The notes beneath the pieces were generated by a model. That model searched no databases. It was not told where the DNA came from and saw only the letters and a program-made list of their open reading frames with translations. Below are positions 2,605-20,000 of a DNA stretch of 20,000 bases, in pieces. The stretch is from the IMG/VR virus record IMGVR_UViG_3300023174_000066. One strand, 5' to 3'. Positions within the stretch are counted from its first letter, which is position 1. Each line of letters opens with the position of its first letter. The DNA comes from an uncultured virus (IMG/VR IMGVR_UViG_3300023174_000066) (taxonomy: Duplodnaviria > Heunggongvirae > Uroviricota > Caudoviricetes). The position numbers and the translations under genes were made by a program.

Positions 2605-2621
2605 CTCTTGAGGAGAGTTAG

Positions 2622-2900: not shown

Positions 2901-2934
2901 TTGCCGGATGCGGGATGGCGCTGCCGGTAAAATT

Positions 2935-5133: not shown

Positions 5134-5153
5134 AGAAAGTGCTTTGGATTTAC

Positions 5154-6697: not shown

Positions 6698-6698
6698 T

Positions 6699-6923
6699 TT
6701 AATCCTCTTCTGGGTCGAAGTAGTCGTTAAGGTCTCTTTCCCAGCAGACCCCTTCGCCATCGCATGTAAGCACGTCATTAAGGCATTCCCCACATACTGT
6801 ACCTTCTCCTGCACAATTAGGACAGTCAATAGTGAAGTCACGCAAATGAACGTCCCAACTTGCGCCGTTGCCCTCGCAAACGGAGCAGGTGATAAGTCGT
6901 TCATATTTACCCTTGCTTGTCAT
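6699..6923 (-). CDS. DnaJ-type CxxCxGxG zinc-finger protein
   Basis: CSVCEGNG...CPNCAGEG...CGEC; ATG 6923 overlaps the upstream stop (TAATG). Confidence 0.7.
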   Translation of the reverse strand: MTSKGKYERLITCSVCEGNGASWDVHLRDFTIDCPNCAGEGTVCGECLNDVLTCDGEGVCWERDLNDYFDPEED

Positions 6924-7393
6924 TAGATACCTGTTCGACAGTCTTGGCACAGAAGAGCATTCAATCCTGTGTCTTGGTCATAAACTACAGTACCAGATTT
7001 TGTGATTACTGTCGGACTAATTGGTCCTTGTTTTCCACAGCGGTCACACTGTCGTGGAGCAATCCATTCAATCACATGTCCTCGTTCAATCGATGCAAGC
7101 ATTCCTCGAGAGAGAGCATGCTCTGGTCCAGGTCCCATCGTCTTTCGAATAAACAGTCTAACGTCTTCAACCTTAATTACAGGACGAATCTCTTTGCATC
7201 GACAATCAATGCGAGAGGGAGTGCAAGCAACAAATCCACCATCAAAACTTTCGTGGACCTTTACTGAGTGACCGCAGACACAAATTCTTTTGTCTCGATC
7301 AGACCTTCCGCTCTTACGAATTTTTTCGTCAGCGGTCTTGAGTTCCTCAATCGTAAAATCGAGAAATCCCATCGGGTTATTTTCTTGTTCCAT
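6923..7393 (-). CDS. Cys-rich hypothetical protein; leaderless
   Basis: CVCGH...C...CRC...CDRC...CQDC; TGA-TACACT-N6-ATG at 7393. Confidence 0.8.
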   Translation of the reverse strand: MEQENNPMGFLDFTIEELKTADEKIRKSGRSDRDKRICVCGHSVKVHESFDGGFVACTPSRIDCRCKEIRPVIKVEDVRLFIRKTMGPGPEHALSRGMLASIERGHVIEWIAPRQCDRCGKQGPISPTVITKSGTVVYDQDTGLNALLCQDCRTGI

Positions 7394-7408
7394 ACCCAAA
7401 GTGTATCA

Positions 7409-7660
7409 TAAACTTTCCTAATTATCCTAATTTTCTAATTGTCAATCGGTTTTTGGGCCCCCTATACACATACGTACACGCGTATAGAGAATTCAATTGA
7501 CATTTATAGTATTAGGATTTATCATTGCCCTACTATCCACTTCGAGCAAAAGTTTTTTCCAAAAACGGATAGTATTATTTATACCCCTCTGTTTTTTACT
7601 ATCCACTTCTGGTTTTACTTTTTCTTCAAAAGTGATAGTATTATTTTATCACCTAATCTG
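7409..7660. repeat. AT-rich divergent intergenic region with iteron-like repeats (candidate replication origin)
   Basis: TACTATCCACTTC at 7531 and 7597; GATAGTATTATTT at 7568 and 7634 (66-bp period); ATAGTATTA also at 7506; CTAATT three times at about 7418-7440. Confidence 0.6.
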
Positions 7661-7672
7661 AACAGGAGTAAA

Positions 7673-7912
7673 ATGTCATACATTATCCTTGGAATCACCT
7701 ACTTTTTTACTTCTTTATTATACATTTTATGGCCTGTTGCCCTCCTCGTAATGCTTACAAAAGTGTCCAAATTTAAGATTGCACTACCCATTACAATCGT
7801 CATTTCCGTCTCAGCTTTTCTTCTTGGACACCAAGCTTTCCTACTCGCAGGGGCAATAGTCTTCCTTATCAGCATTCTTTTTTATCTGATTGGCGACTAC
7901 GTAATCTGGTAA
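7673..7912 (+). CDS. Small multi-pass membrane protein (79 aa)
   Basis: AGGAG SD before ATG 7673; about three hydrophobic segments. Confidence 0.7.
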   Translation: MSYIILGITYFFTSLLYILWPVALLVMLTKVSKFKIALPITIVISVSAFLLGHQAFLLAGAIVFLISILFYLIGDYVIW

Positions 7913-7939
7913 ACTAGAGGTACACCAACCTAGAAAGTT

Positions 7940-9793
7940 ATGATGCTACGTCCCATTAGGGGCGAGGGAGAGCGTCCAACACATACAAAAAGACCACTGA
8001 TTTTAATCTCAGTGGCCTTTCTATTTTTTGCTAATCCGATTACGGCTGGCGCTTTATCTTTACCGACCGAGGCGAAGCTTCAGCCTCAGCCAACTCAGCT
8101 TCGTATTTCTTCGCAGCCTTACGGTTCAGTCTTGCAGCAAGTACTAGTCCTAGAAGGAAAAACCCCAGGACTCCTGCTGCAAACCCAACCCAGAACGAAT
8201 CAAGTTCAATCACAATCTGCATATTCAGACCTCCTATCTGAGCTCCAGTTTACACTACGTCACCTCGAAAATCTACTGTCAAACGCAAAAAACTCTGACC
8301 CCCTAAACCCAGACCCCGAACTTCTCTCCCAATACAAAGCAGAGATCAGGAGTCTGGAACTTAAGCTCCAGCAACTTCAAACGAACGTCGACGCAACTCA
8401 GCAAGCATACGAACAGCTATTCACGTCCACTCAACTTCTCGAAGAAGCAACAGCAAATAAGCAACAAGCGCAAGAAGCCTACGACGCTGCAACTATTAAC
8501 GAACAGAAAGCAAACCAAAGACTTGCACAGGCACATCAAGAACTTGACGCAGCAGTACAAGCTTACGAACAAGCCAACCAGAACTATCAACAAGCGCTAC
8601 AGGCTTATAACGAAAGCCAGATTCCAGACCCTAACCAAACTAACACACAACCAACACAACCAGGTCTGCAGGCAGACATCTATAACCAGATACAAACAGC
8701 AGGTACAAACATACCTCCACGTTCTACAACAGCCTATAACTTCTGTAAAACAGTCACGGTTACGCAAATCAACAACAACTGGGGTTCAGGCAACATCGAA
8801 GGTTGCGGAACTGACTACGTGATGATTCACTACACGGGATACCTCACTGTTCCCGAAGCAACTCCTTACGGTTATGACTTTCTCAGCATCTCCGACGACG
8901 GATGGTACTTTGAACTAGACGGACAAGTAGTAAACGATAACTGGTATCCAAAAGGTTGCGGAGGCAACTGGAGCCGGAAGTTTAACTTAACACCAGGACA
9001 ATCCTACCAAGTAGACGCATGGTGGTATGAGTGGAGCGGAGGAGCATGCTCAACGCTCTATTACGACAGTGGATACAACTGGGGACCAATCCCTGCTGCA
9101 TGGTTCTCACAGACTCCCTACACCCCCATTAGATACATCAACGACCCTGCTCTCTACCCAGCAGTCGTAAGGACAGAACAAGATTTTCAGAACGCGATCA
9201 CTAACAAGAACGCAAAGCAGACAGAGCTCACAACCAAAGAAGGCGAGTATGACCAAGCAGACCAGGCTCTCTTAAGATCCAGCCAACTTTTAACGAACGC
9301 AACTACAGCAGAGCACGATCTACAGCTGCAGCTAACTTTGAACGAACAACAATACACGTCTTCATACAGCGCTACAGCACAACTCGCAGCATCTATCTCC
9401 TTCATAACTATCAACGAGATTCTTACCACACCTGCGCCAGAAATCCCCGAACCCACGCCGGAACCATCTCCAACTCCGAACGAACCTCCGTTAGAAGTTA
9501 CGCCTGCTCCAGAACCTACACCAGAACCTACCCCAGAACCAGAAAACCTAGCAGTTGCAGCAGTTGCAGCAGTAGCCGAAGCGTTTGCTCAAGTTTCAGA
9601 AGCAATCGCAAACATTGGTTCAGATCTATCACCAGAGGTCCGTGAAAAGGCTCAAAAGGTAGTTATTTCAGCAATTGTTGTCACCCAAATTGCAACTCAA
9701 GCCGCCCAAATCGCAACCCAAGCAGCCGCCGCTTCAGCCTCTGCAGCAGCTGCATCAGCAAGTTCTAACTCAGGACCAGGAAGGAGGAAATAG
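7940..9793 (+). CDS. Exported coiled-coil protein with a PA14-like domain, Pro/Glu/Thr linker and Ala-rich C-terminal segment
   Basis: N-terminal signal-like segment; Q/A/E coiled coil; PGLQADIY...INNNWGSG...IHYTGYLTVP...SDDGWYFELDGQVVNDNW...WWYEWSGGA (PA14 pattern); PEPTPEP repeats. Promoter TGGTAAACT at 7907-7915. Confidence 0.8.
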   Translation: MMLRPIRGEGERPTHTKRPLILISVAFLFFANPITAGALSLPTEAKLQPQPTQLRISSQPYGSVLQQVLVLEGKTPGLLLQTQPRTNQVQSQSAYSDLLSELQFTLRHLENLLSNAKNSDPLNPDPELLSQYKAEIRSLELKLQQLQTNVDATQQAYEQLFTSTQLLEEATANKQQAQEAYDAATINEQKANQRLAQAHQELDAAVQAYEQANQNYQQALQAYNESQIPDPNQTNTQPTQPGLQADIYNQIQTAGTNIPPRSTTAYNFCKTVTVTQINNNWGSGNIEGCGTDYVMIHYTGYLTVPEATPYGYDFLSISDDGWYFELDGQVVNDNWYPKGCGGNWSRKFNLTPGQSYQVDAWWYEWSGGACSTLYYDSGYNWGPIPAAWFSQTPYTPIRYINDPALYPAVVRTEQDFQNAITNKNAKQTELTTKEGEYDQADQALLRSSQLLTNATTAEHDLQLQLTLNEQQYTSSYSATAQLAASISFITINEILTTPAPEIPEPTPEPSPTPNEPPLEVTPAPEPTPEPTPEPENLAVAAVAAVAEAFAQVSEAIANIGSDLSPEVREKAQKVVISAIVVTQIATQAAQIATQAAAASASAAAASASSNSGPGRRK

Positions 9794-9796
9794 CAC

Positions 9797-9982
9797 ATGA
9801 AAGACTTTTTTAACGACCTTATCTCACAGGCGTGGACTCTTCTTGGAATGTTCGTTGCATACGTCGTTCTCGAGGGCTCAGCCAAAGAAGTAATCGGTTG
9901 GTGCATTATCGGCACATTAGGTCTCTGGGTAGTCACATATCCACTTCGTAAGCCGTCTAACTCAAATCAAGATGACGAGTAA
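9797..9982 (+). CDS. Small 2-TM membrane protein (holin-like position)
   Basis: AGGAGG SD; two hydrophobic helices; lies directly before an M23 peptidase. Confidence 0.7.
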   Translation: MKDFFNDLISQAWTLLGMFVAYVVLEGSAKEVIGWCIIGTLGLWVVTYPLRKPSNSNQDDE

Positions 9983-10028
9983 CCGGTAAAATTAATAGTA
10001 AGCCTCAAACAAACAAAGGATTAAAAAC

Positions 10029-10679
10029 ATGGCATCAGACTCAAAAGCACAATATGCAATTGATGGGAATCCAGGTAAGAAGTGGAAAGTAACTTCATAC
10101 ATGGGTTGGCGTATTCACCCCGTCTACAAAGACAAGCGCCACCACAACGGAACTGACATTTGGTCTTCACAAGAGCCTTGCTGGATTGAAGCACCTTACG
10201 CAGGAAAGGTTGTCGCAATTGGCAACAACCCTGCTGGGTTTGGAAACAGCGTAACCCTCATGCACAAGATCAAGGGAAAGTGGTACACCACGCTATATGC
10301 TCACATGGCAGATGGCTCAATTAAGGTCAAAAAGGGACAGAAAATCGACGCTGGTACTCCTCTTGGAAAGATGGGCTCAACGGGTACATCAACCGGTAAG
10401 CACCTACACTGGGAACTCCACAAAGGAAAACAGCACCTATGGAACGCCACTGGCGTTGGCTACATTGAGCCTGTCAAGTTCTTTAAGCACCTCATTGAGT
10501 GGGAGAAGTCAATTGCTACTGCTGAAGTAGCAGCTCTACCCGAAGATCCAGTAATCCCAACTCCAACTCACGATGAGGCTGGGTCAGAGGCTGCAGAAGC
10601 AAGTCAAAATGCTATTGCTTCAGCACCAGCTCCAGTAGTCCCTGCAGTAGCCCCAAAGGCACCAGCAAGAAAAAGATAA
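10029..10679 (+). CDS. M23 family metallopeptidase (endolysin-like)
   Basis: HNGTD (HxxxD), YTTLYAHM, GSTGTSTGKHLHWE (HxH); AAAGGA SD. Confidence 0.9.
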   Translation: MASDSKAQYAIDGNPGKKWKVTSYMGWRIHPVYKDKRHHNGTDIWSSQEPCWIEAPYAGKVVAIGNNPAGFGNSVTLMHKIKGKWYTTLYAHMADGSIKVKKGQKIDAGTPLGKMGSTGTSTGKHLHWELHKGKQHLWNATGVGYIEPVKFFKHLIEWEKSIATAEVAALPEDPVIPTPTHDEAGSEAAEASQNAIASAPAPVVPAVAPKAPARKR

Positions 10680-10740
10680 AGACTTATCGGAATAAAGGTG
10701 CATCTGTTATACACAGCACGTAATAAACAATAGCCGATAG

Positions 10741-10778
10741 AGAAGGCCCCCCACCACAAGGTAGGGGGGTTCTTCTTT
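10741..10778. terminator. Terminator between convergent genes
   Basis: AGAAGGCCCCCCACC-ACAA-GGTAGGGGGGTTCTTCTTTT hairpin. Confidence 0.75.
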
Positions 10779-11278
10779 TAGTAGGAGCGACCCTTACCAA
10801 CCTCGCGCAACATACCTAGAGACCTAAACCCCGCTAATTTATCGTGCACGGTCCTAACTGGCATCGAAAACAGCACAGAAAGCACTACAGCAGGGTTTTT
10901 TACTCTAAATTGAGTTATAAAGTTGTAAAAAAGGATCATTTTATCCTCTTCCAACAGGTTAACTGACTCCCAATGGTGGTGGATATGGTCCATCAAGAGA
11001 GAAATACGCTTCTCAGGGCTCGGAAATGCGTGAATATTGGCATTTCCACCGAAAGATTGCTCTAAAAAGTCGAAAACAGGGTCTCGTAAGTACTCTAGTC
11101 TCTTACTGACATCACCTTGTGTGAACCCATATACAGGGAACTCTAGGTGCCCAATTATCAGTAAGTCGTCGCCGTACTTACCAGAGACCCACCATTCGCT
11201 CGAAAAACCGCCATTTTCCGCCTCAAAAAGCTCGACGGTTGCATATAAATTAAGTCTCTCAAAAGTGATGAGAGCCAT
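10778..11278 (-). CDS. Hypothetical protein with C-terminal HTH-like segment
   Basis: PAVVLSVLFSMPVRTVHDKLAGFRSLGML resembles a (winged) helix-turn-helix. Confidence 0.6.
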   Translation of the reverse strand: MALITFERLNLYATVELFEAENGGFSSEWWVSGKYGDDLLIIGHLEFPVYGFTQGDVSKRLEYLRDPVFDFLEQSFGGNANIHAFPSPEKRISLLMDHIHHHWESVNLLEEDKMILFYNFITQFRVKNPAVVLSVLFSMPVRTVHDKLAGFRSLGMLREVGKGRSY

Positions 11279-11281
11279 AAT

Positions 11282-11884
11282 TTACTTCTTTTTCTTCTCA
11301 GTTTTAATAAATACGAGGCGCGAGATCTCTTCAGAGGCAGCAAGAACAGCAATTGGAGCCGAAGCAGTGATAGCAACACCAATCCAAAGACGATAATCAC
11401 CATTTCCAACGCCGATTGTGCTCAAATAGTCAAGAGTATGTGCAACGTTAGCTGCAATTGACACTCCTGCAAAGATAAAGAGCCAGAAAATAGTCCTAAA
11501 TGTCCCTTCGCCACGTGCTGTAAACACAAAAAGTGCGATCGTGTAGGCCAAAATAGCGGCGTCTATGAACAACGCAGGGACCCATTGCAGGAATACAGGG
11601 AGTCCTGTGTACTGGGAAATGTCCCAAATACCGGCAAAAGACACGACAAAGGACGAAAGCATGAGGATAAACACCAAAATCAGTGCAATCCACAGCGTTC
11701 CACGAGAGTCGGGGTTAATACGCTGAGCGTTAGAAGAGGTTGATTCGACTACAGGTGTAGATACGGACACTTCGTTTTGTTCTTCTTGAATATCCATGTC
11801 TAACTCCTGCTCATTCTCAATCCAATCATCATCTATGATTTTTGCAAAGCCCCCTCGGGGGGCAAAAGGTTGGTTAGTATTCAT
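11282..11884 (-). CDS. DUF2637-like 4-TM membrane protein; leaderless
   Basis: SFVVSFAGIWDI...WVPALFIDAAIL...GVSIAANVAH...ASAPIAVLAASE; TGA-TACACT-N6-ATG. Confidence 0.75.
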   Translation of the reverse strand: MNTNQPFAPRGGFAKIIDDDWIENEQELDMDIQEEQNEVSVSTPVVESTSSNAQRINPDSRGTLWIALILVFILMLSSFVVSFAGIWDISQYTGLPVFLQWVPALFIDAAILAYTIALFVFTARGEGTFRTIFWLFIFAGVSIAANVAHTLDYLSTIGVGNGDYRLWIGVAITASAPIAVLAASEEISRLVFIKTEKKKK

Positions 11885-11936
11885 GTCAAAAGTGTATCAC
11901 ATCTTACATAAAAAGCAACTTCTACACACAAAGTTT

Positions 11937-12057
11937 GAGGCCCCCCTATTTCTAGGAGGGCCTCGTTGTAGCACATCACCACACGAATTTCTTCGCATCA
12001 GTTAGTAGGTTGTTTGATAAAGGTATGAGGTAAATCAACGGTCTCTTTGTGCTACAT
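11937..12057 (-). ncRNA. Candidate structured small RNA (~120 nt)
   Basis: Promoter upstream, 9-bp closing stem, GAAA-tetraloop hairpin, 3' GC hairpin, no usable ORF. Confidence 0.5.
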
Positions 12058-12062
12058 GTATT

Positions 12063-12103
12063 ACTTTACAGTATTAAGTTATTTTGTCAAATCCGACACG
12101 CCG
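12063..12103 (-). promoter_or_regulatory. Promoter TTGACA-N16-TAAAGT with adjacent CGACACGCCG (GACAC box)
   Basis: -35 at 12090-12085, -10 at 12068-12063, GACAC at 12095-12099 (+ strand). Confidence 0.6.
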
Positions 12104-12232
12104 TCTATCGCCCCTAGTATCGATTTTATATTTTAACCAAGAATAAAATAAAACAAACGGGGACAATAAAACAAGCATCAACACAAAACTTATTGTCCAT
12201 ATCCATGAACCAATAAGTTTTATTGTGCTCAC
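12074..12232 (-). CDS. Small single-TM protein (52 aa, MSTIKLIGSWIWTISFVLMLVLLSPFVLFYSWLKYKID...)
   Basis: Not in the ORF track; GTGA overlap with the holin stop. Confidence 0.55.
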   Translation of the reverse strand: MSTIKLIGSWIWTISFVLMLVLLSPFVLFYSWLKYKIDTRGDRRRVGFDKIT

Positions 12233-12489
12233 TTTCCCTTAGCCTCCGAGGAGTACTTGGGGGTGCGAGCATTGCCAAGAAGCCAACCAGCTGCAGGCCA
12301 CTGCTCTTCGAGCAGACGAACCAGCGTGTAGTAGACAGCCTGAGTTAGCCCAGTCAGAGCAACGATTGCTCCAGCCTGAGTTTCGCTATCAAGGGCAAGA
12401 CCCTGCGTAGCAAGCCACGCAAAAGCACCGCCGACGGCGATGGGGACCCAAGTACGAATGAGTCCAATCACTGTGTTATTCAACTGCAT
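12229..12489 (-). CDS. Holin-like membrane protein (86 aa)
   Basis: LIRTWVPIAVG...YYTLVRLLEEQWPAAGWLLG..PKY, an actinophage holin-like pattern; GAAGGAAAC SD before ATG 12489. Confidence 0.7.
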   Translation of the reverse strand: MQLNNTVIGLIRTWVPIAVGGAFAWLATQGLALDSETQAGAIVALTGLTQAVYYTLVRLLEEQWPAAGWLLGNARTPKYSSEAKGK

Positions 12490-12503
12490 GTTTCCTTCTT
12501 TCC

Positions 12504-13205
12504 TTATGGAGATACCCACCCATTATTACGATATGACTCGTAAGTGAGTGGCATCTTTTCTGCCCAGAGAGCTTCCATCTGCTCAGCAACCATCTCAATC
12601 TCTACTTGTGGATATGAGGGGTTGAGTGCATCAGACTTCGATGTTCTCAGGGACAGAAAGTTCATTAGACCTCGTGCGTTCATCGTCACATACATTGAAC
12701 TGTATAAGTTGACTGGAAGCACCATTCTTGCTACTTCCTTAGCGACGTTGAGGTTAAGCATTTTGTTGTACTTAATATAAGACTCAACAGAGTTCGCAAG
12801 AATAGCCTCACGAACTTGAGTCTTCTGGAAGTCAGTACCACTTTCAAACGTATACATTCCAGGCTTCCCGATTTGTAGAAGTTTTCTGTCGTAACTAGGG
12901 ACGTAGAAAACTGGGTCTAATTCGCGGTATCGGCCCGATTCTTCGTTATATGAAGCAACTCGATGACGCATAAACTCGCGGAATACAAAGATCGGCGCTT
13001 CAACATAGAATGTAAAAGCATTGTGCTCGAACGGAGTTCCGTGGCGCTCACGCATAAGGTAGTTAATTAGACCAGCGTCCTTAGATTCATTTTCTAACGG
13101 AGCAGTCTTTGTTGAAACTCGAGCGCTGCGGACAACACTCAGGTCTCCACCCATATGATCGATCAACTCAACGGTCATATCTTCGCGCATCACTACTTTA
13201 CTCAT
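12504..13205 (-). CDS. thyX: Flavin-dependent thymidylate synthase
   Basis: ThyX signature RHRVASYNEESGRY, plus HGTPFEH, KEVARMVLP and MNARGLMNFLSLR. Probable start ATG 13205. Confidence 0.95.
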   Translation of the reverse strand: MSKVVMREDMTVELIDHMGGDLSVVRSARVSTKTAPLENESKDAGLINYLMRERHGTPFEHNAFTFYVEAPIFVFREFMRHRVASYNEESGRYRELDPVFYVPSYDRKLLQIGKPGMYTFESGTDFQKTQVREAILANSVESYIKYNKMLNLNVAKEVARMVLPVNLYSSMYVTMNARGLMNFLSLRTSKSDALNPSYPQVEIEMVAEQMEALWAEKMPLTYESYRNNGWVSP

Positions 13206-13215
13206 ATCTAGTTCA

Positions 13216-13905
13216 CTACTCAATGGGCTCTCCTTTATATGTATTATCAATCTCCCCATCCCATGAGTTTTCACGTCTAATCTTTAACGACCACTCACCA
13301 GATGACACATCTCCACGTTCCTTCTTTTCAGCTAAATACTTTCCATTAGCCTGAAAGGTTACATAGTTACGTCGAACAAAGTAATTTGAGCTACGAATGG
13401 TGGCACTCTTCTTATGTAATAAAGGTATTTTAGCCTCAATGACGTCGAAGCCCTTCAGTTCTGTACGCCAACGGTAGTCGTCGTCCTCGAAGTTTGCAGG
13501 ATACAGCCCCTCGTCAAATATCCCCACCTCTTCCACTACCTGCTCACCAATTGAAAAGATCTGAAAGAAAGGGTACTGGTGTGACACAACAATTCGATCT
13601 TTAGCACTCTCGTTAGCCCAAATCTCAAGGGATCCAGGCTGAAACATCACATCATCTGACGCGACATAGACAACCGAATCGTGCGGAAAACTCTTGATTG
13701 CAAGGTTCCAGGACGCCGCAACACCCAAATTAGAAGGCATATTAAGAATTGTGCACTGCTCCACGCAATCTGGAATACCCACACTCTCGAGCTCTCCACC
13801 ATTGTCAATGATCAACAAATGACCAACAGGGTAGTCAATACAACGTACAAGGCTCTGAAGAGACTCGTATTGATTGAGCGTCGGGATTGTTAGGTTAGGA
13901 ATCAT
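13216..13905 (-). CDS. Glycosyltransferase family 2-like protein
   Basis: LTIPTLNQ, LIIDNGG, NLGVAASWN, SDDV, GIFDEGLYPANFEDDDY. Confidence 0.85.
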   Translation of the reverse strand: MIPNLTIPTLNQYESLQSLVRCIDYPVGHLLIIDNGGELESVGIPDCVEQCTILNMPSNLGVAASWNLAIKSFPHDSVVYVASDDVMFQPGSLEIWANESAKDRIVVSHQYPFFQIFSIGEQVVEEVGIFDEGLYPANFEDDDYRWRTELKGFDVIEAKIPLLHKKSATIRSSNYFVRRNYVTFQANGKYLAEKKERGDVSSGEWSLKIRRENSWDGEIDNTYKGEPIE

Positions 13906-14348
13906 TTGACACCAGTTGACCCAAATCCACCTTCGCCTCGCTCTGTTTCGTCTAGTTCTGTATCCTTAACGACGTCGAAGGCAGCGGTTAGGTGGTGCTG
14001 AAATACCAATTGAGCGACTCGATCTCCTCGCTCAATAACAAAGTCCCACTTAGAAGCATTGTAGAGAATGACTCCCACCTCTCCGCGATAACCAGAATCA
14101 ATAGTTCCAGGAGCGTTTAAAACTGTAATTCCACTTCTTAGCGCCAACCCAGAGCGGGGGTGCACCAAAGCAACTATTCCAGCAGGAAGAGAGAGTCGTA
14201 CTCCAGTTTTTATCAAAGCTCGATCACCAGGAGCAATCATGTGCCACCCAGCAGAGCGAAGATCACAACCTGCGTCTCCCTCACTTGCATAGGTAGGAAG
14301 CAGCGACTCGTCGTCTACAGAAATAGTAATCTTCGTCATTGCAGTCAT
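13902..14348 (-). CDS. dut: dUTPase (trimeric type); leaderless
   Basis: AGCDL, PRSGLA, GTIDSGYRGE, RVAQL, RGEGGFGSTG (motifs I-V); TGC-TAAAAT-N6-ATG. Confidence 0.95.
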   Translation of the reverse strand: MTAMTKITISVDDESLLPTYASEGDAGCDLRSAGWHMIAPGDRALIKTGVRLSLPAGIVALVHPRSGLALRSGITVLNAPGTIDSGYRGEVGVILYNASKWDFVIERGDRVAQLVFQHHLTAAFDVVKDTELDETERGEGGFGSTGVK

Positions 14349-14494
14349 GACTCAATTTTAGCACGACGTTCCCTCTTTTTAGCCTCATACGCCGATTTCC
14401 TCCGGGCAATCTCTTCCTGCTTAATTTCCAACAGACGTCGACGAGCAGCTTCTGAGAGATTAGCGTCCCAGCTACGCCATTTTTTTCTTGCCAC
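14345..14494 (-). CDS. Small basic helical protein (49 aa, MARKKWRSWDANLSEAARRRLLEIKQEEIARRK...)
   Basis: Not in the ORF track; the GTG abuts the HNH stop and the TGA overlaps the dut ATG. Confidence 0.55.
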   Translation of the reverse strand: MARKKWRSWDANLSEAARRRLLEIKQEEIARRKSAYEAKKRERRAKIES

Positions 14495-15001
14495 TTATCT
14501 GTCTTTTTCTACTCTTAAGTAGTAAGTAGGTCTACCATTTCCATAATTTCTACCACGATATGAAGAAGTAAGCGCATGGCAGTTTGGACATAGAACTTCT
14601 AAATTTTCTTTTGAGTGATTGGTACCATCACCATCAATATGATTTATTTCAAGAATAGAGTTCCCATCATCTGGATGCTTCTTCCCAAAACCACATTTTG
14701 AACACAAATAGTTAGACTCTTTTAGTAGAAAGTTTCTAACAGAGTTTGACAGTTTTCTTTTAGACCCACCAGACCACTCTCCATTTATCCAAAGCTGTAC
14801 TTTACCAAAAGCAACATCAGATCCACGTCTATCCCAGCAACTTTTGCAGTATGTTCTTGTAGAAGATATTAAAGATGAACATCTTCGACAATGACCCTCA
14901 ACACAACGCTTTGGATAAGCTTTATTATTATATTTTGCGGAGCAAGACTTAGAGCAAAACTTTGGATTTTTTGTTTCGAAACCACATGTTAAACAACTCA
15001 T
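14495..15001 (-). CDS. HNH endonuclease with N-terminal zinc fingers; leaderless
   Basis: CSKC...LEINHIDGDGTNHSKENLEVLCPNCHALT; noticeably AT-rich; TGG-TAATAT-N6-ATG. Confidence 0.9.
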   Translation of the reverse strand: MSCLTCGFETKNPKFCSKSCSAKYNNKAYPKRCVEGHCRRCSSLISSTRTYCKSCWDRRGSDVAFGKVQLWINGEWSGGSKRKLSNSVRNFLLKESNYLCSKCGFGKKHPDDGNSILEINHIDGDGTNHSKENLEVLCPNCHALTSSYRGRNYGNGRPTYYLRVEKDR

Positions 15002-15028
15002 GATACTATATTACCATAGTTCAAATAT

Positions 15029-15107
15029 CCCGATGTATCGCCTGTGGTTTCTACCCACTTGAAAGCGTAACGGATACATGCAGGTTCGAATCCTGTCATC
15101 GGGGCCA
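15029..15107 (+). tRNA. Non-canonical tRNA-like RNA (putative UCU/Arg anticodon hairpin, no standard D arm)
   Basis: Acceptor stem CCCGATG/CATCGGG plus G plus CCA; T arm GCAGG-TTCGAAT-CCTGT; hairpin GTGG-TTTCTAC-CCAC. Confidence 0.7.
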
Positions 15108-15139
15108 GCCACACCGCTGAGCTACAGAGGGTTTTAGAC

Positions 15140-15502
15140 TTAAATGCCTTGAGACTTTTGGATCTCTTTAGCAATGTCGTCTAAAGTAAAAGAGCCTCTG
15201 TGCTTGTAGAAGTTAATAATCGCAACAGCCCTATCTCTTTCATTTTTAATGATTTTGTTTCTTTCTTGAAGCGCTTGCATCTGCTTAAAAGCAGCCTTCT
15301 CTTGCGCCCTAAGATACTTTCGTTGCCTGTCATAGTGCGTCTGACAAAGACCGGATGCTCTAACACCAGCAGTGCAGTCTTCTACCTCACACGGTTGCGC
15401 CAACCTTTCGGCTTTTACTGCAGCTCGATAGTGTGTTATACACATTCCTCGCGTAAGAAAGTTTTGCTCTCCACACACGGAGCAGGTTCCAGATTTTCTC
15501 AT
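15140..15502 (-). CDS. Double C3H zinc-finger protein with C-terminal ERxR-type helix
   Basis: CSVC...GMCITHY and CEVEDC...GLCQTHY; AAAGGAG SD. Confidence 0.8.
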   Translation of the reverse strand: MRKSGTCSVCGEQNFLTRGMCITHYRAAVKAERLAQPCEVEDCTAGVRASGLCQTHYDRQRKYLRAQEKAAFKQMQALQERNKIIKNERDRAVAIINFYKHRGSFTLDDIAKEIQKSQGI

Positions 15503-15514
15503 TCTTTATCTCCT

Positions 15515-16576
15515 TTAGTTAGAGTACATTTTTAATACTGCCAGCGGGTCTACCAAAACACCATTCATTTTAATTGCAAGGTGCAGGTGCGGTCCGCTAG
15601 TTCTTCCAGTGTCTCCAACTTTTCCAATTGTCTGATCGATTTCAATCTTATCTCCAACAGATACTGCCACAGAGCCACCAATCATATGAGCGTAGATTAC
15701 TTCCATCCCATGACCAGCGTCTATGGAAACATAATACCCCAAGTCGTAATCGTAGTCAACTTTAGTAACAGTTCCAGCAATGATAGAAGGAATCTTTGTC
15801 CCAGAAGGAACAGTAAAGTCTACCCCCTGATGGTAGGAAGAACACCCCGAACAGGGAGGAGTTCTGTACCCATACCTATCATTAATAGTTGAAGGCTTAA
15901 ATGGGTAGCGCATTATGGGCATATAAAAGCCTGAATCTGGGTCTGGAAGATCACTAGCTACAATATTTTCCGCAGTGAAAGACTGTACTTTTTCTATGCT
16001 ACTAGCAAAGTTAGCACACGGAGCAGTCCCAGCATGCGCCGGAGAGCTAGCTAAAATCACAGTTGAAGCCACCGCCACTACCGCGTACTTCTTTGACTTA
16101 CTTACCGCCTCCTTGCTCCAATGCTGAAAAAGCCCCAGACCTTTAGCCAACTTACTCGGCCCAGGGACTTGCTCTTCAGATAGAACAATCTCTGTTACTG
16201 GAGCCGGATCTGTCTCCACTACGTCCAAAGCTTTAGGCTTCCTGCGGAAAATCCCGTAAATCTCGTCTTTGAAATCCTCAACAAGCTTTGTCACAATGTG
16301 ATCATCAGGGAAGCTGACAAACGCTTTATCGATAATCTCAACAACCCTGTTACGCTCAAAACGAGCAACTTCGTGGTGATTACCAATCCCCTCTGCATAC
16401 TCAAGACACTCTGCTTGATACTGCATGAGACCTCGCTCGTTACCCACGACGCGGATGTAGTTGTCTTTACTACGCTTAAGAACGTAGGCAACTCGGTTTC
16501 TCTGAGAGATACCCGAATCCAACTTCCACCTCTTTCGGAGGCTTTCAAGTTGAGTCTTCTGTGCATTACTTATCAT
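15515..16576 (-). CDS. M23 peptidase with N-terminal extension and internal signal-like segment
   Basis: HQGVD, IYAHM, GDTGRTSGPHLH. Confidence 0.85.
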   Translation of the reverse strand: MISNAQKTQLESLRKRWKLDSGISQRNRVAYVLKRSKDNYIRVVGNERGLMQYQAECLEYAEGIGNHHEVARFERNRVVEIIDKAFVSFPDDHIVTKLVEDFKDEIYGIFRRKPKALDVVETDPAPVTEIVLSEEQVPGPSKLAKGLGLFQHWSKEAVSKSKKYAVVAVASTVILASSPAHAGTAPCANFASSIEKVQSFTAENIVASDLPDPDSGFYMPIMRYPFKPSTINDRYGYRTPPCSGCSSYHQGVDFTVPSGTKIPSIIAGTVTKVDYDYDLGYYVSIDAGHGMEVIYAHMIGGSVAVSVGDKIEIDQTIGKVGDTGRTSGPHLHLAIKMNGVLVDPLAVLKMYSN

Positions 16577-16826
16577 CTAGTTTTCCCCTCTCGATAAGTG
16601 CAATAGCATTCTCTATGACCCAAACAGTTTTAGTGCCTGCTTTGGTCCCCGTGGATGAGGCGGTGTCGCTCATTTTGTTTAATATTGCAATAATGCGTTC
16701 ACGCTCTTTACGAATCCCCTTGTCAACGCCATCTTCTTTGGCGCTCCTAGCAATAGCACCAACCGTCCCCTCCAAGAGTTCACGGCTGTGCTCTGAAACG
16801 ATGCGATTGTAGTTTCCTTTACTCAA
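16566..16826 (-). CDS. ERERII-family small protein
   Basis: KERERIIAIL...AIALIERG. Confidence 0.75.
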   Translation of the reverse strand: MSKGNYNRIVSEHSRELLEGTVGAIARSAKEDGVDKGIRKERERIIAILNKMSDTASSTGTKAGTKTVWVIENAIALIERGKLDDK

Positions 16827-17002
16827 GAGTTTTCTCCCTTGATAAGAGCAATAATGTCAGAGACGTCTGAAAACGCGTAATGCCATTCATCTTTGGCTTC
16901 GATTAGTGCAATGATTCGCTCGCGCTCACGCCGTCTCGCGTGGCTGGCAACTTTACGTTCGCGCTTGTTGCGTGGCTGACGCAAATAGTCAACGAGTGTC
17001 AT
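16823..17002 (-). CDS. ERERII-family small protein (59 aa)
   Basis: TAATG overlap at 17002; RERERIIALI...IIALIKGENS. Confidence 0.75.
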   Translation of the reverse strand: MTLVDYLRQPRNKRERKVASHARRRERERIIALIEAKDEWHYAFSDVSDIIALIKGENS

Positions 17003-17223
17003 TAGTTCTCTCCCTTGATAAGAGCAATAGCCTCGCACATCAGGCAATCGTAATGAATACCTGAAAGATGACTAGTGTTATGCCAATACTCGTGGTTGAG
17101 TAGTTCGATGATGCGTTCACGCTCTTTATTGCGAACATATTCAGCATATGCGTTAATTTCGTCTACATCTTCTTCAGAGAATGCGCTGTTCAGTACCAGC
17201 ATGTTGTGCTCAAACTTAATCAA
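17002..17223 (-). CDS. ERERII-family small protein
   Basis: KERERIIELL...AIALIKGEN. Confidence 0.75.
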   Translation of the reverse strand: MIKFEHNMLVLNSAFSEEDVDEINAYAEYVRNKERERIIELLNHEYWHNTSHLSGIHYDCLMCEAIALIKGEN

Positions 17224-17407
17224 TTTTATCTCCCTTGATTAGCCTATAAATCTGACCGCAGACTCCCATGTCAAAGAATAAATAATTATCCTTGAGTAGT
17301 GCAAGTATGCGCTCGCGCTCGCGCTTAGTAGCAGCTTCTTCAGCCTCTTTGATTAGCCCCTGAACTGCGTGGAGCTCTTGCTTCATTACTTCTTCCCAGT
17401 CATTCAC
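17216..17407 (-). CDS. ERERII-family small protein
   Basis: AGGAGG SD; RERERILALL...LIKGDK. Confidence 0.75.
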   Translation of the reverse strand: MNDWEEVMKQELHAVQGLIKEAEEAATKRERERILALLKDNYLFFDMGVCGQIYRLIKGDKID

Positions 17408-17549
17408 CGGTTTTCCTCCTAGGTTTGTTAATCAAGTATCGAATAATTTCATCAGCCACAGCATACAGAATAACCAGACCAATCAAAATAAAAACAGCAA
17501 GTACCCCATACCCAAACAGCATAAGAGCAGTGTAGATAAATAGTATCAT
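17400..17549 (-). CDS. Small single-TM protein (49 aa)
   Basis: Not in the ORF track; MILFIYTALMLFGYGVLAVFILIGLVILYAVADE...; ATGA overlap. Confidence 0.65.
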   Translation of the reverse strand: MILFIYTALMLFGYGVLAVFILIGLVILYAVADEIIRYLINKPRRKTGE

Positions 17550-17713
17550 TTCGTTTGCTCCTTGATAAGCCAAATAACTTTGCCGAGTGTCAGGGTTCTT
17601 CCGTACTCGTCGTCATACATCTTTTCCAGCAACGCAAGTATTCGTCCACGCTCTTGCTCTGCACCTGTACGTATGTCTTTCTGGCGAAGGGGAGACATTT
17701 TTTTCTCGCTCAT
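17546..17713 (-). CDS. ERERII-family small protein (55 aa)
   Basis: Not in the ORF track; GAEQERGRILALLEK...VIWLIKEQTK; ATGA overlaps. Confidence 0.7.
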   Translation of the reverse strand: MSEKKMSPLRQKDIRTGAEQERGRILALLEKMYDDEYGRTLTLGKVIWLIKEQTK

Positions 17714-17907
17714 GTGGCCTCTTCCTCGATAAGCGCGATGAGTTGGTTGTGATCCATCACTTCAGCGTACTCAGAGTCACGCAACTTGTCAAGTAGTGCA
17801 ATGATTCGTTTGCGCTCTGCGCTACGCCCAAGTTCAAATTGAACTCGACCATGAGCCTTGAGTTCGAGGTCGAAGACTTCTTCCTCGGTAAATATGCGCC
17901 GGATCAT
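17710..17907 (-). CDS. ERERII-family small protein
   Basis: GRSAERKRIIALLDK...LIALIEEE. Confidence 0.75.
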   Translation of the reverse strand: MIRRIFTEEEVFDLELKAHGRVQFELGRSAERKRIIALLDKLRDSEYAEVMDHNQLIALIEEEAT

Positions 17908-18107
17908 CCGTCGTATCCGTAAGAGTAGTCTGTTTCAGACTTAGTGTAGTCACAGGAATTGCATGTGGTGATGATATCTGCTTCATAGCGACCCGTCATT
18001 TCTACCCACTCGGTGCAGTAGGTCAATTTCTCACAGCTGGGGCATTCCCACTCCGAGTCCTCAAACATTCCTTCGTCGGGCGGGTCAATTGGTGCTTCAA
18101 TTCCCAT
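17904..18107 (-). CDS. Small acidic zinc-ribbon protein
   Basis: CPSC...CNSC; AAGGAG SD. Confidence 0.75.
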   Translation of the reverse strand: MGIEAPIDPPDEGMFEDSEWECPSCEKLTYCTEWVEMTGRYEADIITTCNSCDYTKSETDYSYGYDG

Positions 18108-18153
18108 TAGCTTCTGTCTCCTTGTTAGTGGTAGCTTTTGCTACACCACCACA

Positions 18154-18387
18154 TTACTGCTCTCTGAGCATTTTGTCAAGGTCACGCATCAAACTTTTCA
18201 TACGAATTTCTACGTATTGATCTTCTAGATCCTGAAGCCTCTTTTTTAAATCACTATCCCGACGCTCAAGATCTTCTAGACGTCGACGCAAAGCATTTAG
18301 CCTTGCAATATTGTCAGGAGTCCAAGCGTTGTTGGGCTTAGGCTCACCCATTTGATTCTCGTTGTCATCTCTAAAGCTATTGTTCAT
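18154..18387 (-). CDS. Small coiled-coil protein
   Basis: RLNALRRRLEDLERRDSDLKKRLQDLE; probable start ATG 18387. Confidence 0.65.
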   Translation of the reverse strand: MNNSFRDDNENQMGEPKPNNAWTPDNIARLNALRRRLEDLERRDSDLKKRLQDLEDQYVEIRMKSLMRDLDKMLREQ

Positions 18388-18580
18388 CTTTGGCCCACTT
18401 ATCATAAAGATTGACAAGGCCATACATAGTAACTAAGTAAAAGACAATTGAAACAGACCCAACAGAAACAACTACTACCCAGTTATTCAAAGTAGTATCT
18501 CTCACAAATGCAGAAATCGACGCAACTACAACTAGCAAGGCTAGAGCCACGTGCAACACAAACAGAAGTATTTTAATCAA
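18377..18580 (-). CDS. Small 2-TM membrane protein
   Basis: Two hydrophobic segments; GAAAGGA SD before TTG. Confidence 0.7.
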   Translation of the reverse strand: MIKILLFVLHVALALLVVVASISAFVRDTTLNNWVVVVSVGSVSIVFYLVTMYGLVNLYDKWAKDEQ

Positions 18581-18743
18581 CTATCTTAGGTCCTTTCTTT
18601 GAAGGGAGTTTAATTTTCTCAACTTGTCTTTTGTCTTTCCCTTTAATCAGTTTGACAGAAAACCCATTGCCCATACTTACCACAGCTTCCATACGTTCTG
18701 GATCTTTGTCGAAGTCGTGGATTTCCTTACTGACGTCGACCAT
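18573..18743 (-). CDS. Hypothetical protein (56 aa, MVDVSKEIHDFDKDPERMEAVVSMGNGFSVKLIKG...)
   Basis: Not in the ORF track; TAATG overlap; fills the gap. Confidence 0.65.
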   Translation of the reverse strand: MVDVSKEIHDFDKDPERMEAVVSMGNGFSVKLIKGKDKRQVEKIKLPSKKGPKIVD

Positions 18744-18910
18744 TAGTAATTCCTGTTCTCAATCTTGCTGATAATAGCGTCGTATAGTTCTACAACTGCA
18801 GGGTCATTCTGATTCGACCTGTCGTAGCGCAGCGACTCCACGAGAACACGTCTCTCGTTATCTGCTCCACGAACCATGCCTTGCATGTAGGCATTCTCGT
18901 AATCATTCAC
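18743..18910 (-). CDS. ERERII-related small protein
   Basis: YMQGMVRGADNERRVLVESL; probable GTG start at 18910. Confidence 0.65.
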   Translation of the reverse strand: MNDYENAYMQGMVRGADNERRVLVESLRYDRSNQNDPAVVELYDAIISKIENRNY

Positions 18911-19061
18911 CTTCAACCACTCCGTCAATTCTAATAATCAGCTCTACAGCCTCAGCAGACAAATTTTTGTCCCAGTTCTCTAAAATCTTGTTAACCCCGT
19001 CACGAATACGGTTCCGCTCGTCTTGAATACCTCGAAAGTATCCACTAATCTGTTCGTCCAT
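18903..19061 (-). CDS. ERERII-related small protein (52 aa)
   Basis: Not in the ORF track; MDEQISGYFRGIQDERNRIRDGVNKILE... Confidence 0.65.
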   Translation of the reverse strand: MDEQISGYFRGIQDERNRIRDGVNKILENWDKNLSAEAVELIIRIDGVVEGE

Positions 19062-19062
19062 C

Positions 19063-19311
19063 TCATCCATTGTCGGACTCCTTTTCTACTTCGTAGTCTA
19101 GGTCGATGCTATCAATAGCTTTCTGAAGGACGTCGACGGGGTTGACCTCGGCAGACTTAGGGTCTTCTAGGTATTCTCTCTGAAGGCTATATAGAATGTC
19201 TGCAATGCGCTCACGCTCTCGGAGCTCTCCTTCGTGCAGGACAATACCAATAATCATCTCTTGGCTGTCTGTCATGTTTTCCAGAGTAAGCGTCCTATAC
19301 TTCTTGGTCAT
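19063..19311 (-). CDS. ERERII-family small protein; leaderless first gene of the operon
   Basis: GELRERERIADIL; TGG-TAAAGT-N6-ATG. Confidence 0.8.
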   Translation of the reverse strand: MTKKYRTLTLENMTDSQEMIIGIVLHEGELRERERIADILYSLQREYLEDPKSAEVNPVDVLQKAIDSIDLDYEVEKESDNG

Positions 19312-19356
19312 ACCTCTACTTTACCACGAGATAGCCTAAAACTAGCCGGTAACTGC

Positions 19357-19383
19357 AACATTGAACGAACTTCGTTCAAAGTT
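19357..19383. repeat. Inverted pair of the AACTTnnAACGAA motif (operator-like palindrome)
   Basis: AACATTGAACGAA-C-TTCGTTCAAAGTT, upstream of the 19311 promoter. Confidence 0.7.
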
Positions 19384-19430
19384 CATTATAACATTTTAGA
19401 TTTTATTATACAACGTATCATGTTGTACAG

Positions 19431-19452
19431 AAAAGGGCCCCCGAAGGGGCCC
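19431..19452 (-). terminator. Intrinsic terminator with UUCG loop
   Basis: GGGCCCC-TTCG-GGGGCCC-TTTT on the - strand. Confidence 0.9.
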
Positions 19453-19482
19453 TAATACTGGCGTATAGACTTAAACTTAAGT

Positions 19483-19971
19483 TTATACGGGCCAGATATA
19501 TTCGTAGTTTTCAGGCCTGTATCCAGGGTCTTCTTCCCACCCAAACTGGGAGTACCACTCGTATTCCTTGCTAAGTAGGGCAGTCCGGTGGCTGGAGGCA
19601 ATTTCGTCAAAGAAGCTCATGTCTCGAATCCAGGCAGGAGGGTCGGAGGGGTGATCTAGGAGACCAAGCTGCTCAGCACGAAGCATCGTTGCTTGAGCCT
19701 TCTCTCCGATAGTCGAGTTAAATCCTCGACTCTTCCACTCCTTTACCATTGCTTGGATATAGACATACAAGGCCATCTCGTGACCTCTCCACATCTTTAC
19801 AGCTGGGTGGTTCCTCCAACCTTTAGCAGGTCGAAAGTTCCCTTGCGGATCAAGCTCGAGGAGATTCATAAGAATCTGCCAGCCCTCAAGGGCGTTTTTA
19901 TTTAAACGACGATTGTCTAGGTATTTAGCACACGATTCAAATGATTCAGTGCTAGGCATAAATGACTGCAT
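19483..19971 (-). CDS. Pyrimidine-dimer DNA glycosylase-like protein (MSMEG_6728 family)
   Basis: MQSFMP...SCAKYLDNRRLNK..LE..QIL...GWRNHPAVKMWRGHE...SHRTALLSK..EWY...YIWPV. Confidence 0.8.
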   Translation of the reverse strand: MQSFMPSTESFESCAKYLDNRRLNKNALEGWQILMNLLELDPQGNFRPAKGWRNHPAVKMWRGHEMALYVYIQAMVKEWKSRGFNSTIGEKAQATMLRAEQLGLLDHPSDPPAWIRDMSFFDEIASSHRTALLSKEYEWYSQFGWEEDPGYRPENYEYIWPV

Positions 19972-20000
19972 TTACTCTCTTTTCTTTAGGTTAGAGCTAT

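Follow-up and report, generated by a model that had tools for sequence, protein, structure and literature searches.

How can a stretch of phage DNA that carries both ends of a transfer RNA (tRNA) gene, together with an anticodon hairpin, be read if the parts between do not form a cloverleaf? This question is raised by an element on the plus strand at positions 15029-15107 of a 20,000-nucleotide (nt) stretch of DNA, referred to here in its entirety as the window, from an uncultured virus of the Caudoviricetes (Duplodnaviria; Heunggongvirae; Uroviricota; IMG/VR record IMGVR_UViG_3300023174_000066). A preliminary description of the locus had proposed either a topologically rewired tRNA-Arg(UCU) that might still form the elbow of a tRNA, or a tRNA mimic or decoy. 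From a comparison with its relatives we find it near certain that the element belongs to a conserved family of structured RNAs that is almost phage-only, and we consider that it is probably a working rewired tRNA-Arg(UCU) with an encoded CCA, charged and decoding, a judgement based on its own sequence, on a covariance model from which it had been left out, and on 53 aligned homologues.

The predicted RNA is 76 nt long without its CCA, and its two ends are those of a canonical tRNA. The 5' strand of the acceptor stem (15029-15035) forms seven out of seven Watson-Crick pairs with 15097-15103, the discriminator G15104 and the CCA at 15105-15107 can be read directly from the sequence, and the T arm (GCAGG-TTCGAAT-CCTGT, 15080-15096) has a stem of 5 base pairs (bp) and a 7-nt loop, which makes the stem lengths of the acceptor/T branch the standard 7/5. 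Behind the acceptor strand, TAT (15036-15038) represents U8-A9 and a conserved T that faces T15068, where a U.U layer would lie atop the helix that follows and take a tertiary role; CGC (15039-15041) is the 5' strand of this 3-bp enclosing helix, which pairs with 15065-15067 and may occupy the spatial position of D-stem nucleotides 23-25. Enclosed by it is the anticodon hairpin (GTGG at 15044-15047 with CCAC at 15055-15058; 15044-15058 as a whole), which is supported by sequence and covariation. Its loop, TTTCTAC (15048-15054), is fully standard, with T33 at 15049, TCT at 15050-15052 and A37 at 15053, and its stem has only four Watson-Crick pairs, the fifth layer being U.U or similar. A TTGAAA bulge (15059-15064), presumably in the role of positions 44-45, leads from the anticodon stem to the 3' strand of the enclosing helix, GCG (15065-15067), which was recovered by covariation and by RNAalifold and may stand in space for D-stem nucleotides 10-12. 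It is followed by a D-loop-like connector, TAACGGATACAT (15068-15079), conserved in the family and with GGA at 15072-15074, for which we propose the numbering A14, A15, G18 G19, A20, U20a, A21 and then CAT as 46-48. All these parts lie where the preliminary description had placed them, except that it had the loop start 8 nt after the acceptor strand; it is the hairpin stem that starts there, and the loop starts 12 nt after.

A canonical D arm, that is a hairpin at positions 10-25, is not present; the anticodon hairpin sits inside the helix that starts after U8-A9. The earlier claim that the middle region is no cloverleaf agrees with the behaviour of standard tRNA finders: ARAGORN reported neither a tRNA nor a transfer-messenger RNA (tmRNA) gene in the 20-kb window, Rfam gave no match at gathering thresholds, and at a relaxed threshold the Rfam tRNA model RF00005 scored it at 28.6 bits against a cut-off of 29. 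In the Infernal alignment to RF00005 the element appears as D-armless, with 4 nt for the 15 D-arm positions and an insertion of 17 nt in the variable region. The other members fare alike, ARAGORN calling the rewired gene itself in none of 51 family loci. A tmRNA or a piece of a permuted tmRNA was considered and rejected, as ARAGORN finds none.

Relatives of the element were collected from isolated phages and from IMG/VR. Among isolated phages, BLAST located Streptomyces phages with 81% identity to the element over 63 nt; in one of them, Mildred21, the site lies 2 nt after an HNH gene and is annotated as tRNA-Phe(gaa). A pattern taken from the 3' half retrieved 11 IMG/VR loci, the unconstrained 5' halves of which all have the same layout, and a 21-base pattern comprising bulge, connector and T loop retrieved 55 IMG/VR viral loci, whereas 596 Gb of bacterial genomes contained just 3 matching loci. 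Loose 14-base patterns hit at least 118 and at least 116 stretches, nearly all of them by chance, and filtering left two new members, L099 and L186. With duplicates removed, 54 distinct sequences including that of the window could be aligned (pairwise identity 45-92%, mean 68%; 83% between the window copy and its closest relatives), and a covariance model recovered about 14 further copies beyond these. The homologue collection called for in the preliminary description thus yielded one common, non-cloverleaf layout: acceptor strand, UAU, 3-bp helix, CU, hairpin of 4 bp with a 7-nt loop, NNGAAA, 3' strand of the helix, UAAYUGGAUACAU and T arm. Using one covariance model (R1), family members scored 66-98 bits and the canonical tRNAs of the same loci less than 33 bits. 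A second model (R2), built from the 53 homologues without the window, gave the window element 86.5 bits (E 1.8e-21); with filters off the element was the sole match in the window, no non-standard pair was flagged, and all 19 base pairs of the model are intact in this copy.

Some diverged relatives scored 36-48 bits with R1 (L293 2224-2303, L293 2312-2391, L009 1545-1622 and L303 2926-2999). They have the Arg anticodons TCT or TCG and different bulges, and they are also missed by ARAGORN; in the two L293 copies the connectors, AGTTGCAAAT and AGTTGAAAAT, are without GG and the enclosing helix has 4 bp.

The alignment of 54 sequences supports the proposed secondary structure, a three-way junction. 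Standard pairs fill 95.5% of its 1130 cells, compared with 63.3% in shuffles and 38-49% with slid partners, the cell counts overstating the number of independent events as the sequences are related. Compensatory changes were found at 18 of the 21 pairs, and the covariation score was reached by none of 500 shuffles. All seven acceptor pairs show such changes (98.1% of cells paired), and so do all three pairs of the enclosing helix (columns 11-13 with 37-39; 100% paired), which bears out the earlier suggestion that CGC/GCG can enclose the hairpin. Covariation is present at all four stem pairs of the anticodon hairpin, and the T-arm helix (columns 54-58 with 66-70) is 99.3% paired. With the alignment alone as input, RNAalifold returned the same four helices. 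Among columns that lie outside every search pattern, T8 and A9 are invariant (54/54) and T10 is kept in 52 of 54 sequences; the GAAA is retained in 11 loci that were found by a pattern not containing it, and the first two bases of the bulge vary across the family (TT, TA, GT, CA, TC, GA, TG, CC). The C before the hairpin faces the G of GAAA (C15042-G15061 in the window) as C-G in 53 of 54 sequences, an invariance that puts this pair beyond testing by covariation. Two outcomes had been named in advance as speaking against the proposal, a high-scoring standard cloverleaf and a decayed, unconserved middle region; what we found is no such cloverleaf and a middle region that is conserved and covaries.

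The loop triplet varies like an anticodon, a check that the preliminary description had suggested. It reads TCT in 21 of the 54 sequences, ACG in 19, CCT in 8, TCG and GCG in 2 each, CCG in 1 and GAT in 1; an arginine anticodon is therefore present in 53, with all six types represented from the CGN and AGR boxes, and T33 is found in 53 and A37 in all 54. The copies found by the model have ACG in L297, L186, the Microbacterium phage A3Wally, Mildred21 and RHph_I1_18, TCG in L303, L305, L009 and L293, and TCT in L303, L293, the Streptomyces phage Yaboi, RHph_I1_18 and Mildred21. In one review (PMC9976931), the arginine identity set is given as A20, C35, position 36 and A/G73, to which plants add U20a and A38, and A20 is named as the main determinant for the arginyl-tRNA synthetase (ArgRS) of E. 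coli. Members of the family have GGAU in the connector, C35 in 53 of 54, A or G as discriminator in 48 and A38 in 43, and the GG-containing strand that had been noticed 3' of the hairpin is conserved. Since GGAT lay in the search pattern, the copies found by the model are a fairer test of A20, and GGA is present in 12 of the 12 Arg-anticodon copies found by the model alone and not by the pattern. The window element has the family layout, an Arg anticodon with C35, an A after the GG of the connector and an identity set of A20, U20a, C35, U36 and G73; because this set is full, we propose that the RNA would be charged by the host ArgRS and would read AGA (and AGG).

Copies with the isoleucine anticodon GAT were found at L249 1469-1545, in the Mildred21 record at 73703-73779 (L311 13704-13780) and in the Yaboi record at 74542-74618 (L317). 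The one GAT copy that is common to Mildred21 and Yaboi has GGU, not GGA, in its connector. On one or two occasions, the rewired design may have been taken over for a different amino acid.

The rewired genes are placed among, and complement, ordinary phage tRNA genes. Canonical tRNAs called by ARAGORN lie within 1.5 kb in 44 of 51 loci (1-14 genes, always in the orientation of the rewired gene, which often fits the spacing of the array); in L298, for example, canonical tRNAs end at 1461 and start at 1555, and the element takes up 1469-1545. The 19 canonical tRNA-Arg genes that are present in 15 of the loci have no anticodon in common with the rewired copies of the same locus, and where a locus has several rewired copies the anticodon is never repeated. 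Of two phages whose complete genomes were surveyed, Mildred21, with 46 Rfam tRNA matches for 20 amino acids, has CCT as its sole canonical tRNA-Arg, and its rewired Arg copies are TCG (annotated as tRNA-Phe), ACG (unannotated) and TCT (annotated as tRNA-OTHER). The other, the Rhizobium phage RHph_I1_18, has 27 Rfam tRNA matches and tRNAs for 19 amino acids. None of its 23 genes named by ARAGORN is Arg, and the five matches that ARAGORN skipped (three) or left unnamed (two), which read as GCA, CCA, CAA and two irregular loops, show no Arg anticodon when folded. The Arg anticodons of this phage, ACG and TCT, are only in its two rewired genes, one of which lies inside a tRNA array.

The tRNA sets of these phages have further peculiarities. 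Three minus-strand RHph_I1_18 genes (L320 7012-7089, 6934-7009 and 11387-11460) are a CTA tRNA, which ARAGORN labels Pyl and which would read amber, and two tRNAs with irregular anticodon loops, one of them the four-base 'tatg'; L263 120-190 is a TTA, ochre-reading tRNA. In one IMG/VR contig, a phage-borne gene for tmRNA (L274 706-1076, plus strand) precedes the rewired tRNA-Arg by about 400 nt, and Mildred21 also has one (record 96087-96353). Genes for tRNA repair or RNA quality control are found beside or near rewired tRNAs, namely at L272 492-1457 (minus strand), L279 760-1173 (minus strand) and in the Mildred21 record at 80769-82421, 99529-100629 and 101172-102077. An RNA ligase is beside the element in L272 and a polynucleotide kinase in L279, and Mildred21 carries an RNA ligase, a polynucleotide kinase, a Ro-like protein and a tRNA nucleotidyltransferase. 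These genes are hints that such phages face tRNA-cutting defences.

How such an RNA might be folded can be suggested by numbering it as a tRNA. Segments 10-21 (5' strand of the D stem and D loop) and 22-45 (3' strand of the D stem, anticodon arm and start of the variable loop) would have been swapped, resulting in the chain order acceptor, U8-A9, 22-25-like strand, anticodon arm, GAAA bulge, 10-13-like strand, AAYUGGAUA, CAU and T arm. The strand after A9 would run towards the anticodon and, in the usual manner of a tRNA, enter the anticodon stem by way of a 26-like C. The GAAA bulge, in the role of 44-45, would then lead to a strand that runs back up in the role of 10-13 and the first G of which matches the conserved G10, the G10-like pair being C-G in 47 of 54 sequences; A14, A15, Y16, U17, G18, G19, A20, U20a, A21 and CAU (46-48) would follow into the T stem. 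Just three joins, 9 to 22, 45 to 10 and 21 to 46, would differ from those of a normal tRNA, and all three would link nucleotides that are already adjacent in the core of the known L-shape. Between the top of the enclosing helix and the anticodon loop we count 4+2+4 prospective layers, versus 4+1+5 in a cloverleaf, and the stacked layers and elbow contacts of the L-shape may still form, including U8-A14, A15-U48 and the contact of G18 G19 with the T loop. We infer an L-shaped three-dimensional fold from this layer counting and from known tertiary pairs, the remaining standard tertiary pairs of tRNA being drawn upon as well. U8-A14, G18-Psi55, G19-C56 and the contacts between D stem and variable loop are standard tertiary interactions of tRNA according to PMC7609411. 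As to its origin, the new order may have arisen from a partial tandem duplication of 10-45 and subsequent loss of the outer copies. Of the two options in the preliminary description, a rewired tRNA-Arg(UCU) still able to form the elbow gains support from the covarying CGC/GCG, the arginine triplets, the conserved GG strand and the lack of covariation in a competing helix that is discussed below.

The window copy adjoins a gene for an HNH homing endonuclease of 168 amino acids (14495-15001, minus strand; phrog_10822, 5.9e-18; phrog_1271, 7.6e-17), which is read divergently from the tRNA gene at a distance of 27 nt, and which matches 12 PHROG families, 11 of them named HNH endonuclease and one without assigned function. 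A related record, G001, is collinear with the window over 6324-14493 (86% identity) and 15546-16829 (80%), and the stretch between these blocks differs. There, G001 has an intact canonical tRNA-Arg(tct) on the minus strand (ARAGORN; Rfam 63.2 bits; L002 1596-1668), which is its only tRNA match, and no rewired copy was found in G001. The window has, in minus-strand orientation at 15114-15131, a stub of a canonical tRNA-Arg(UCU) that reaches from the acceptor 5' strand to G18 (nt 1-18) and does not differ from the corresponding 18 nt of the G001 gene. Neither this stub nor the HNH gene features in the preliminary description. A 6-nt spacer, GCCACA (15108-15113), lies between the CCA and the stub and forms the right edge of an inserted cassette of 620 nt (14494-15113) that is composed of the HNH gene and the rewired tRNA gene and takes the place of nt 19-73 of the resident gene. 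The cassette is a presence/absence polymorphism between otherwise collinear relatives, being present in the window and absent from G001, and the alignment of the two records shows that, on insertion, it evidently erased the 55 nt at the 3' end of the canonical tRNA-Arg(UCU) gene native to this phage. We propose that the HNH cassette would have destroyed the resident gene and brought its own replacement with the same anticodon; as the canonical tRNA-Arg(UCU) was destroyed by the insertion, the rewired gene would restore the lost function. The rewired order may also be poorly recognised by a nuclease directed at the canonical gene, which is the presumed target of the HNH enzyme.

A divergent pair of HNH and rewired tRNA-Arg genes is also found in L301 (HNH identity 65%), L292 (59%) and L282 (32%). 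The distance from the HNH start codon to the 5' end of the tRNA is 27-30 nt in the window, L301 and L292, and there is no spacer in L282. At the aligned position of the spacer, L301 and L292 have TGnTATAAT and the window has TATATT (15007-15012, plus strand), a weak candidate for the -10 box of the tRNA gene. In 9 of the 53 other loci, homing-endonuclease-type open reading frames (ORFs) are found no more than 150 nt from the rewired gene, a count for which 56 of 70 candidate ORFs were searched, the other 14 having been excluded by eye as overlapping the element or being nested alternative frames. In the HNH gene 9 of the 13 Arg codons are AGA, and a count over 22 ORFs gave 45 of 237.

Two further ideas about the HNH gene were rejected. 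This HNH family is not always tied to rewired tRNAs, as relatives from isolates (at most 47% identity), examined at four loci, lie beside canonical tRNAs at three of them and beside none at one, and R1 finds no rewired copy at these four loci (best score 25.7 bits). Nor is the gene one half of a split HNH gene made up of 15140-15502 and 14495-15001, two minus-strand ORFs that share a frame and both touch phrog_1271: four stops lie between the two, the G001 homologue of ORF 15140-15502 is a separate gene of 126 amino acids (L307 8547-8927), and there are 8 database homologues of 101-120 amino acids, which together identify this ORF as a resident gene and not an HNH half. In G001, an 86-amino-acid ORF (L307 8284-8544, minus strand) between the tRNA-Arg and the homologue of ORF 15140-15502 has no counterpart in window 15137-15545, so the two phages differ here by more than the cassette; read by eye from its sequence, its product looks like a GroES-type co-chaperonin.

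Besides the relatedness of the aligned sequences, several observations weigh against reading the element as a working tRNA-Arg(UCU). The conservation of GAAA, TAA, GGAT, CATG and GTTCGA was imposed by the 21-base search pattern. The proposed pairing of T15 with N32 is missing from 39 of 54 sequences, and the pair that stands for 27-43 is U.U. At least one member, L005, has just 5 of 7 acceptor pairs, from which it follows that decayed copies exist. The family is not strictly arginine-specific, with GAT copies in L249, Mildred21 and Yaboi, and that of Mildred21 duplicates a canonical tRNA-Ile(gat). The window copy is solitary and, as previously noticed, on the strand opposite to its neighbours, the flanking ORFs annotated between 10778 and 19971 all being on the minus strand; a consensus promoter scan found no sigma-70-type promoter within 14800-15400. 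The tRNA stub is present in the window alone and absent 3' of the cassette tRNAs in L301, L292 and L282. Folded by itself, the window sequence has a z-score of only -1.02 relative to shuffles, and it prefers ATGTATC/GATACAT, the alternative pairing described earlier and indeed its minimum free energy fold (-22.4 kcal/mol, compared with -20.6 for the family structure). As a conserved fold this helix was rejected, for it shows no compensatory changes and its columns 5, 6 and 11 (three of seven) are mostly unpaired; within it only TAT/ATA is invariant and hence not testable by covariation.

Could the element be an RNA that folds as proposed and yet is unused in translation? As a mimic or decoy it would divert an anticodon nuclease, a modification enzyme or ArgRS, and a core incompatible with EF-Tu or the ribosome could be imagined for such a non-standard RNA; the RNA ligase in L272, the polynucleotide kinase in L279 and the repair and Ro-like genes of Mildred21 would fit it. 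However, this explanation leaves the retention of the identity set, the acceptor stem and the discriminator unexplained, the rewired copies fill just those Arg anticodons that canonical genes lack, with no clash in 15 loci, and in RHph_I1_18, where 19 other specificities are covered, Arg tRNAs of any other kind are absent. We therefore regard this second option of the preliminary description as unlikely, the confinement of Arg anticodons to rewired genes in RHph_I1_18 counting against it. Alternatively, the element might be part of the DNA machinery of the homing cassette, whether as a recombination or homology arm or as a sequence conferring immunity to the HNH enzyme, and thus a relic of a tRNA and not an expressed RNA. 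The 27 nt between element and HNH start codon, similar in L301 and L292, and the nearby endonuclease-type ORFs in 9 of 53 other loci point in this direction. It is nevertheless a very improbable explanation, given that in the remaining 44 of these 53 loci no endonuclease ORF was found within 150 nt, that the element occurs inside ordinary tRNA arrays, and that covariation in four helices is the mark of selection on an RNA and not on a DNA site.

A decaying pseudo-tRNA or a recombination scar particular to the window is suggested by the adjoining 18-nt fragment of a real tRNA, which marks the locus as rearranged, and by the solitary position of the gene antisense to its neighbours. Yet a model blind to the window gave the element 86.5 bits with all 19 model pairs intact, and every helix is kept through compensatory changes relative to its closest relatives, which are 83% identical; decay is hence a highly improbable account of the window copy. 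Finally, the sequence could be taken for an ordinary tRNA whose anticodon loop, TTGAAA, has the usual linear position, as this is where positions 32-37 would fall in a standard tRNA. This is how database records have it: the rewired site of Mildred21 is annotated as tRNA-Phe(gaa), its GAA lying at positions 33-35 by count, and the Yaboi record has tRNA-Val(aac). Among 23 isolate-phage GenBank records that match at least two thirds of the element none is labelled tRNA-Arg; tRNA-Phe and tRNA-Val occur in two rows each (one phage in either case), HNH endonuclease in two and hypothetical protein in one, and 16 have no label. The labels Phe and Val arise when the triplet is looked for at its standard linear distance. 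We rejected TTGAAA as an anticodon loop and consider an ordinary tRNA of this kind hardly conceivable: the two bases before GAAA vary freely, and such a loop would therefore have no conserved U33; no stem flanks TTGAAA; the covariation of columns 11-13 with 37-39 would be left unexplained; a canonical tRNA-Phe(gaa) is already present in many of the same loci; and ARAGORN reproduces neither label.

Compared with a canonical tRNA-Arg such as the tRNA-Arg(tct) of G001, the rewired family has the same 7-bp acceptor stem, A or G as discriminator, T arm and 7-nt loop with U33 and A37, and also Arg anticodons, GGAU like G18 G19 A20 U20a, a length of 76-77 nt and a place in phage tRNA arrays. It differs in that there is no D hairpin, its pairing strand being 3' of the anticodon arm and the D-loop-like sequence occupying the place of the variable loop, and with R1 the scores of the two classes lie more than 30 bits apart. 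In the red alga Cyanidioschyzon merolae, circularly permuted tRNA genes likewise have tRNA parts in a non-standard order, the 3' half preceding the 5' half, and processing restores a normal tRNA. Here, in contrast, the acceptor strands are at both ends of the element, which is not how a circularly permuted gene is built; only 10-45 is permuted, and the mature RNA itself would be non-standard. With the D-armless tRNAs of metazoan mitochondria (type III, mitochondrial (mt) tRNA-Ser(AGY)) the family shares three arms and the lack of an independent D hairpin; these tRNAs are of reduced length, no longer have the conserved elbow nucleotides of D loop and T loop, and function with mitochondrial factors that are adapted to them (PMC7609411). 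Rewired tRNAs, on the other hand, are of full length and keep the GG strand and a canonical T loop, and they would have to use ordinary bacterial ArgRS, EF-Tu and ribosomes. The window element is in a phage context, is 76 nt long and retains GG and TTCGAAT, unlike a mitochondrial D-armless tRNA, and its enclosing helix and GAAA bulge have no counterpart there.

Allo-tRNAs, which like the rewired family are natural non-canonical tRNAs of the bacterial world that came from metagenome mining, have acceptor/T branches of 8/4 or 9/3, only the stem lengths being changed and the four-arm order of the cloverleaf being kept (PMC5389517); the rewired family, by contrast, has standard 7/5 stems and a changed order of segments. 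The cassette resembles free-standing homing endonucleases of phage tRNA clusters such as SegB of phage T4, a GIY-YIG enzyme that moves normal tRNA genes (PMC2330249). In both cases an endonuclease sits among tRNA genes, is present or absent between relatives and carries flanking tRNA sequence along. Different from SegB, the HNH gene travels with a rewired tRNA-Arg, and a resident canonical gene with the same anticodon was destroyed. A full-text literature search, from which most subscription journals were out of reach, found no description of a rewired phage tRNA-Arg. The word phage is absent from a 2020 review of non-canonical tRNAs, and in a 2024 paper all known bacterial tRNAs are stated to be cloverleaves.

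If the RNA is charged and decodes, a chain joined in another order can also give an L-shape that passes through ordinary bacterial translation, and the family would offer a naturally occurring means of finding out which features are read by ArgRS, RNase P, the CCA-adding enzyme, EF-Tu and the ribosome. A wider proposal, tentative and rather less likely than not, is that phages keep a second tRNA architecture of different topology that is accepted by host ArgRS, EF-Tu and ribosomes, that it has lasted because the segment swap hides gene and RNA from agents that recognise the canonical arms (homing endonucleases directed at tRNA genes, such as the adjoining HNH, and host tRNA-cleaving defences), and that in some phages it is the sole source of tRNA-Arg. 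The combination of a homing endonuclease and a destroyed canonical gene suggests a route by which selfish elements may spread at no cost to the phage. Censuses of phage tRNAs are incomplete, with ARAGORN having called 0 of 51 such genes and GenBank labels for them reading tRNA-Phe, tRNA-Val, tRNA-OTHER or nothing, and phages seemingly without a tRNA-Arg may in fact have one. The rewired design may also serve as an orthogonal tRNA scaffold.

The remainder of the window has a phage-like gene content, with a dUTPase, ThyX, a glycosyltransferase, two M23 peptidases, a pyrimidine-dimer glycosylase and the HNH endonuclease. The M23 peptidase genes are on both strands (10029-10679, plus; 15515-16576, minus), and the larger one directly follows the tRNA/HNH locus. 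G+C content changes from about 0.51 to about 0.44 near position 5000 (1-5000 compared with 5001-20000), and AT skew becomes strongly positive from 8001 to 12000, the region of the two ORFs on the plus strand (7940-9793 and 10029-10679).

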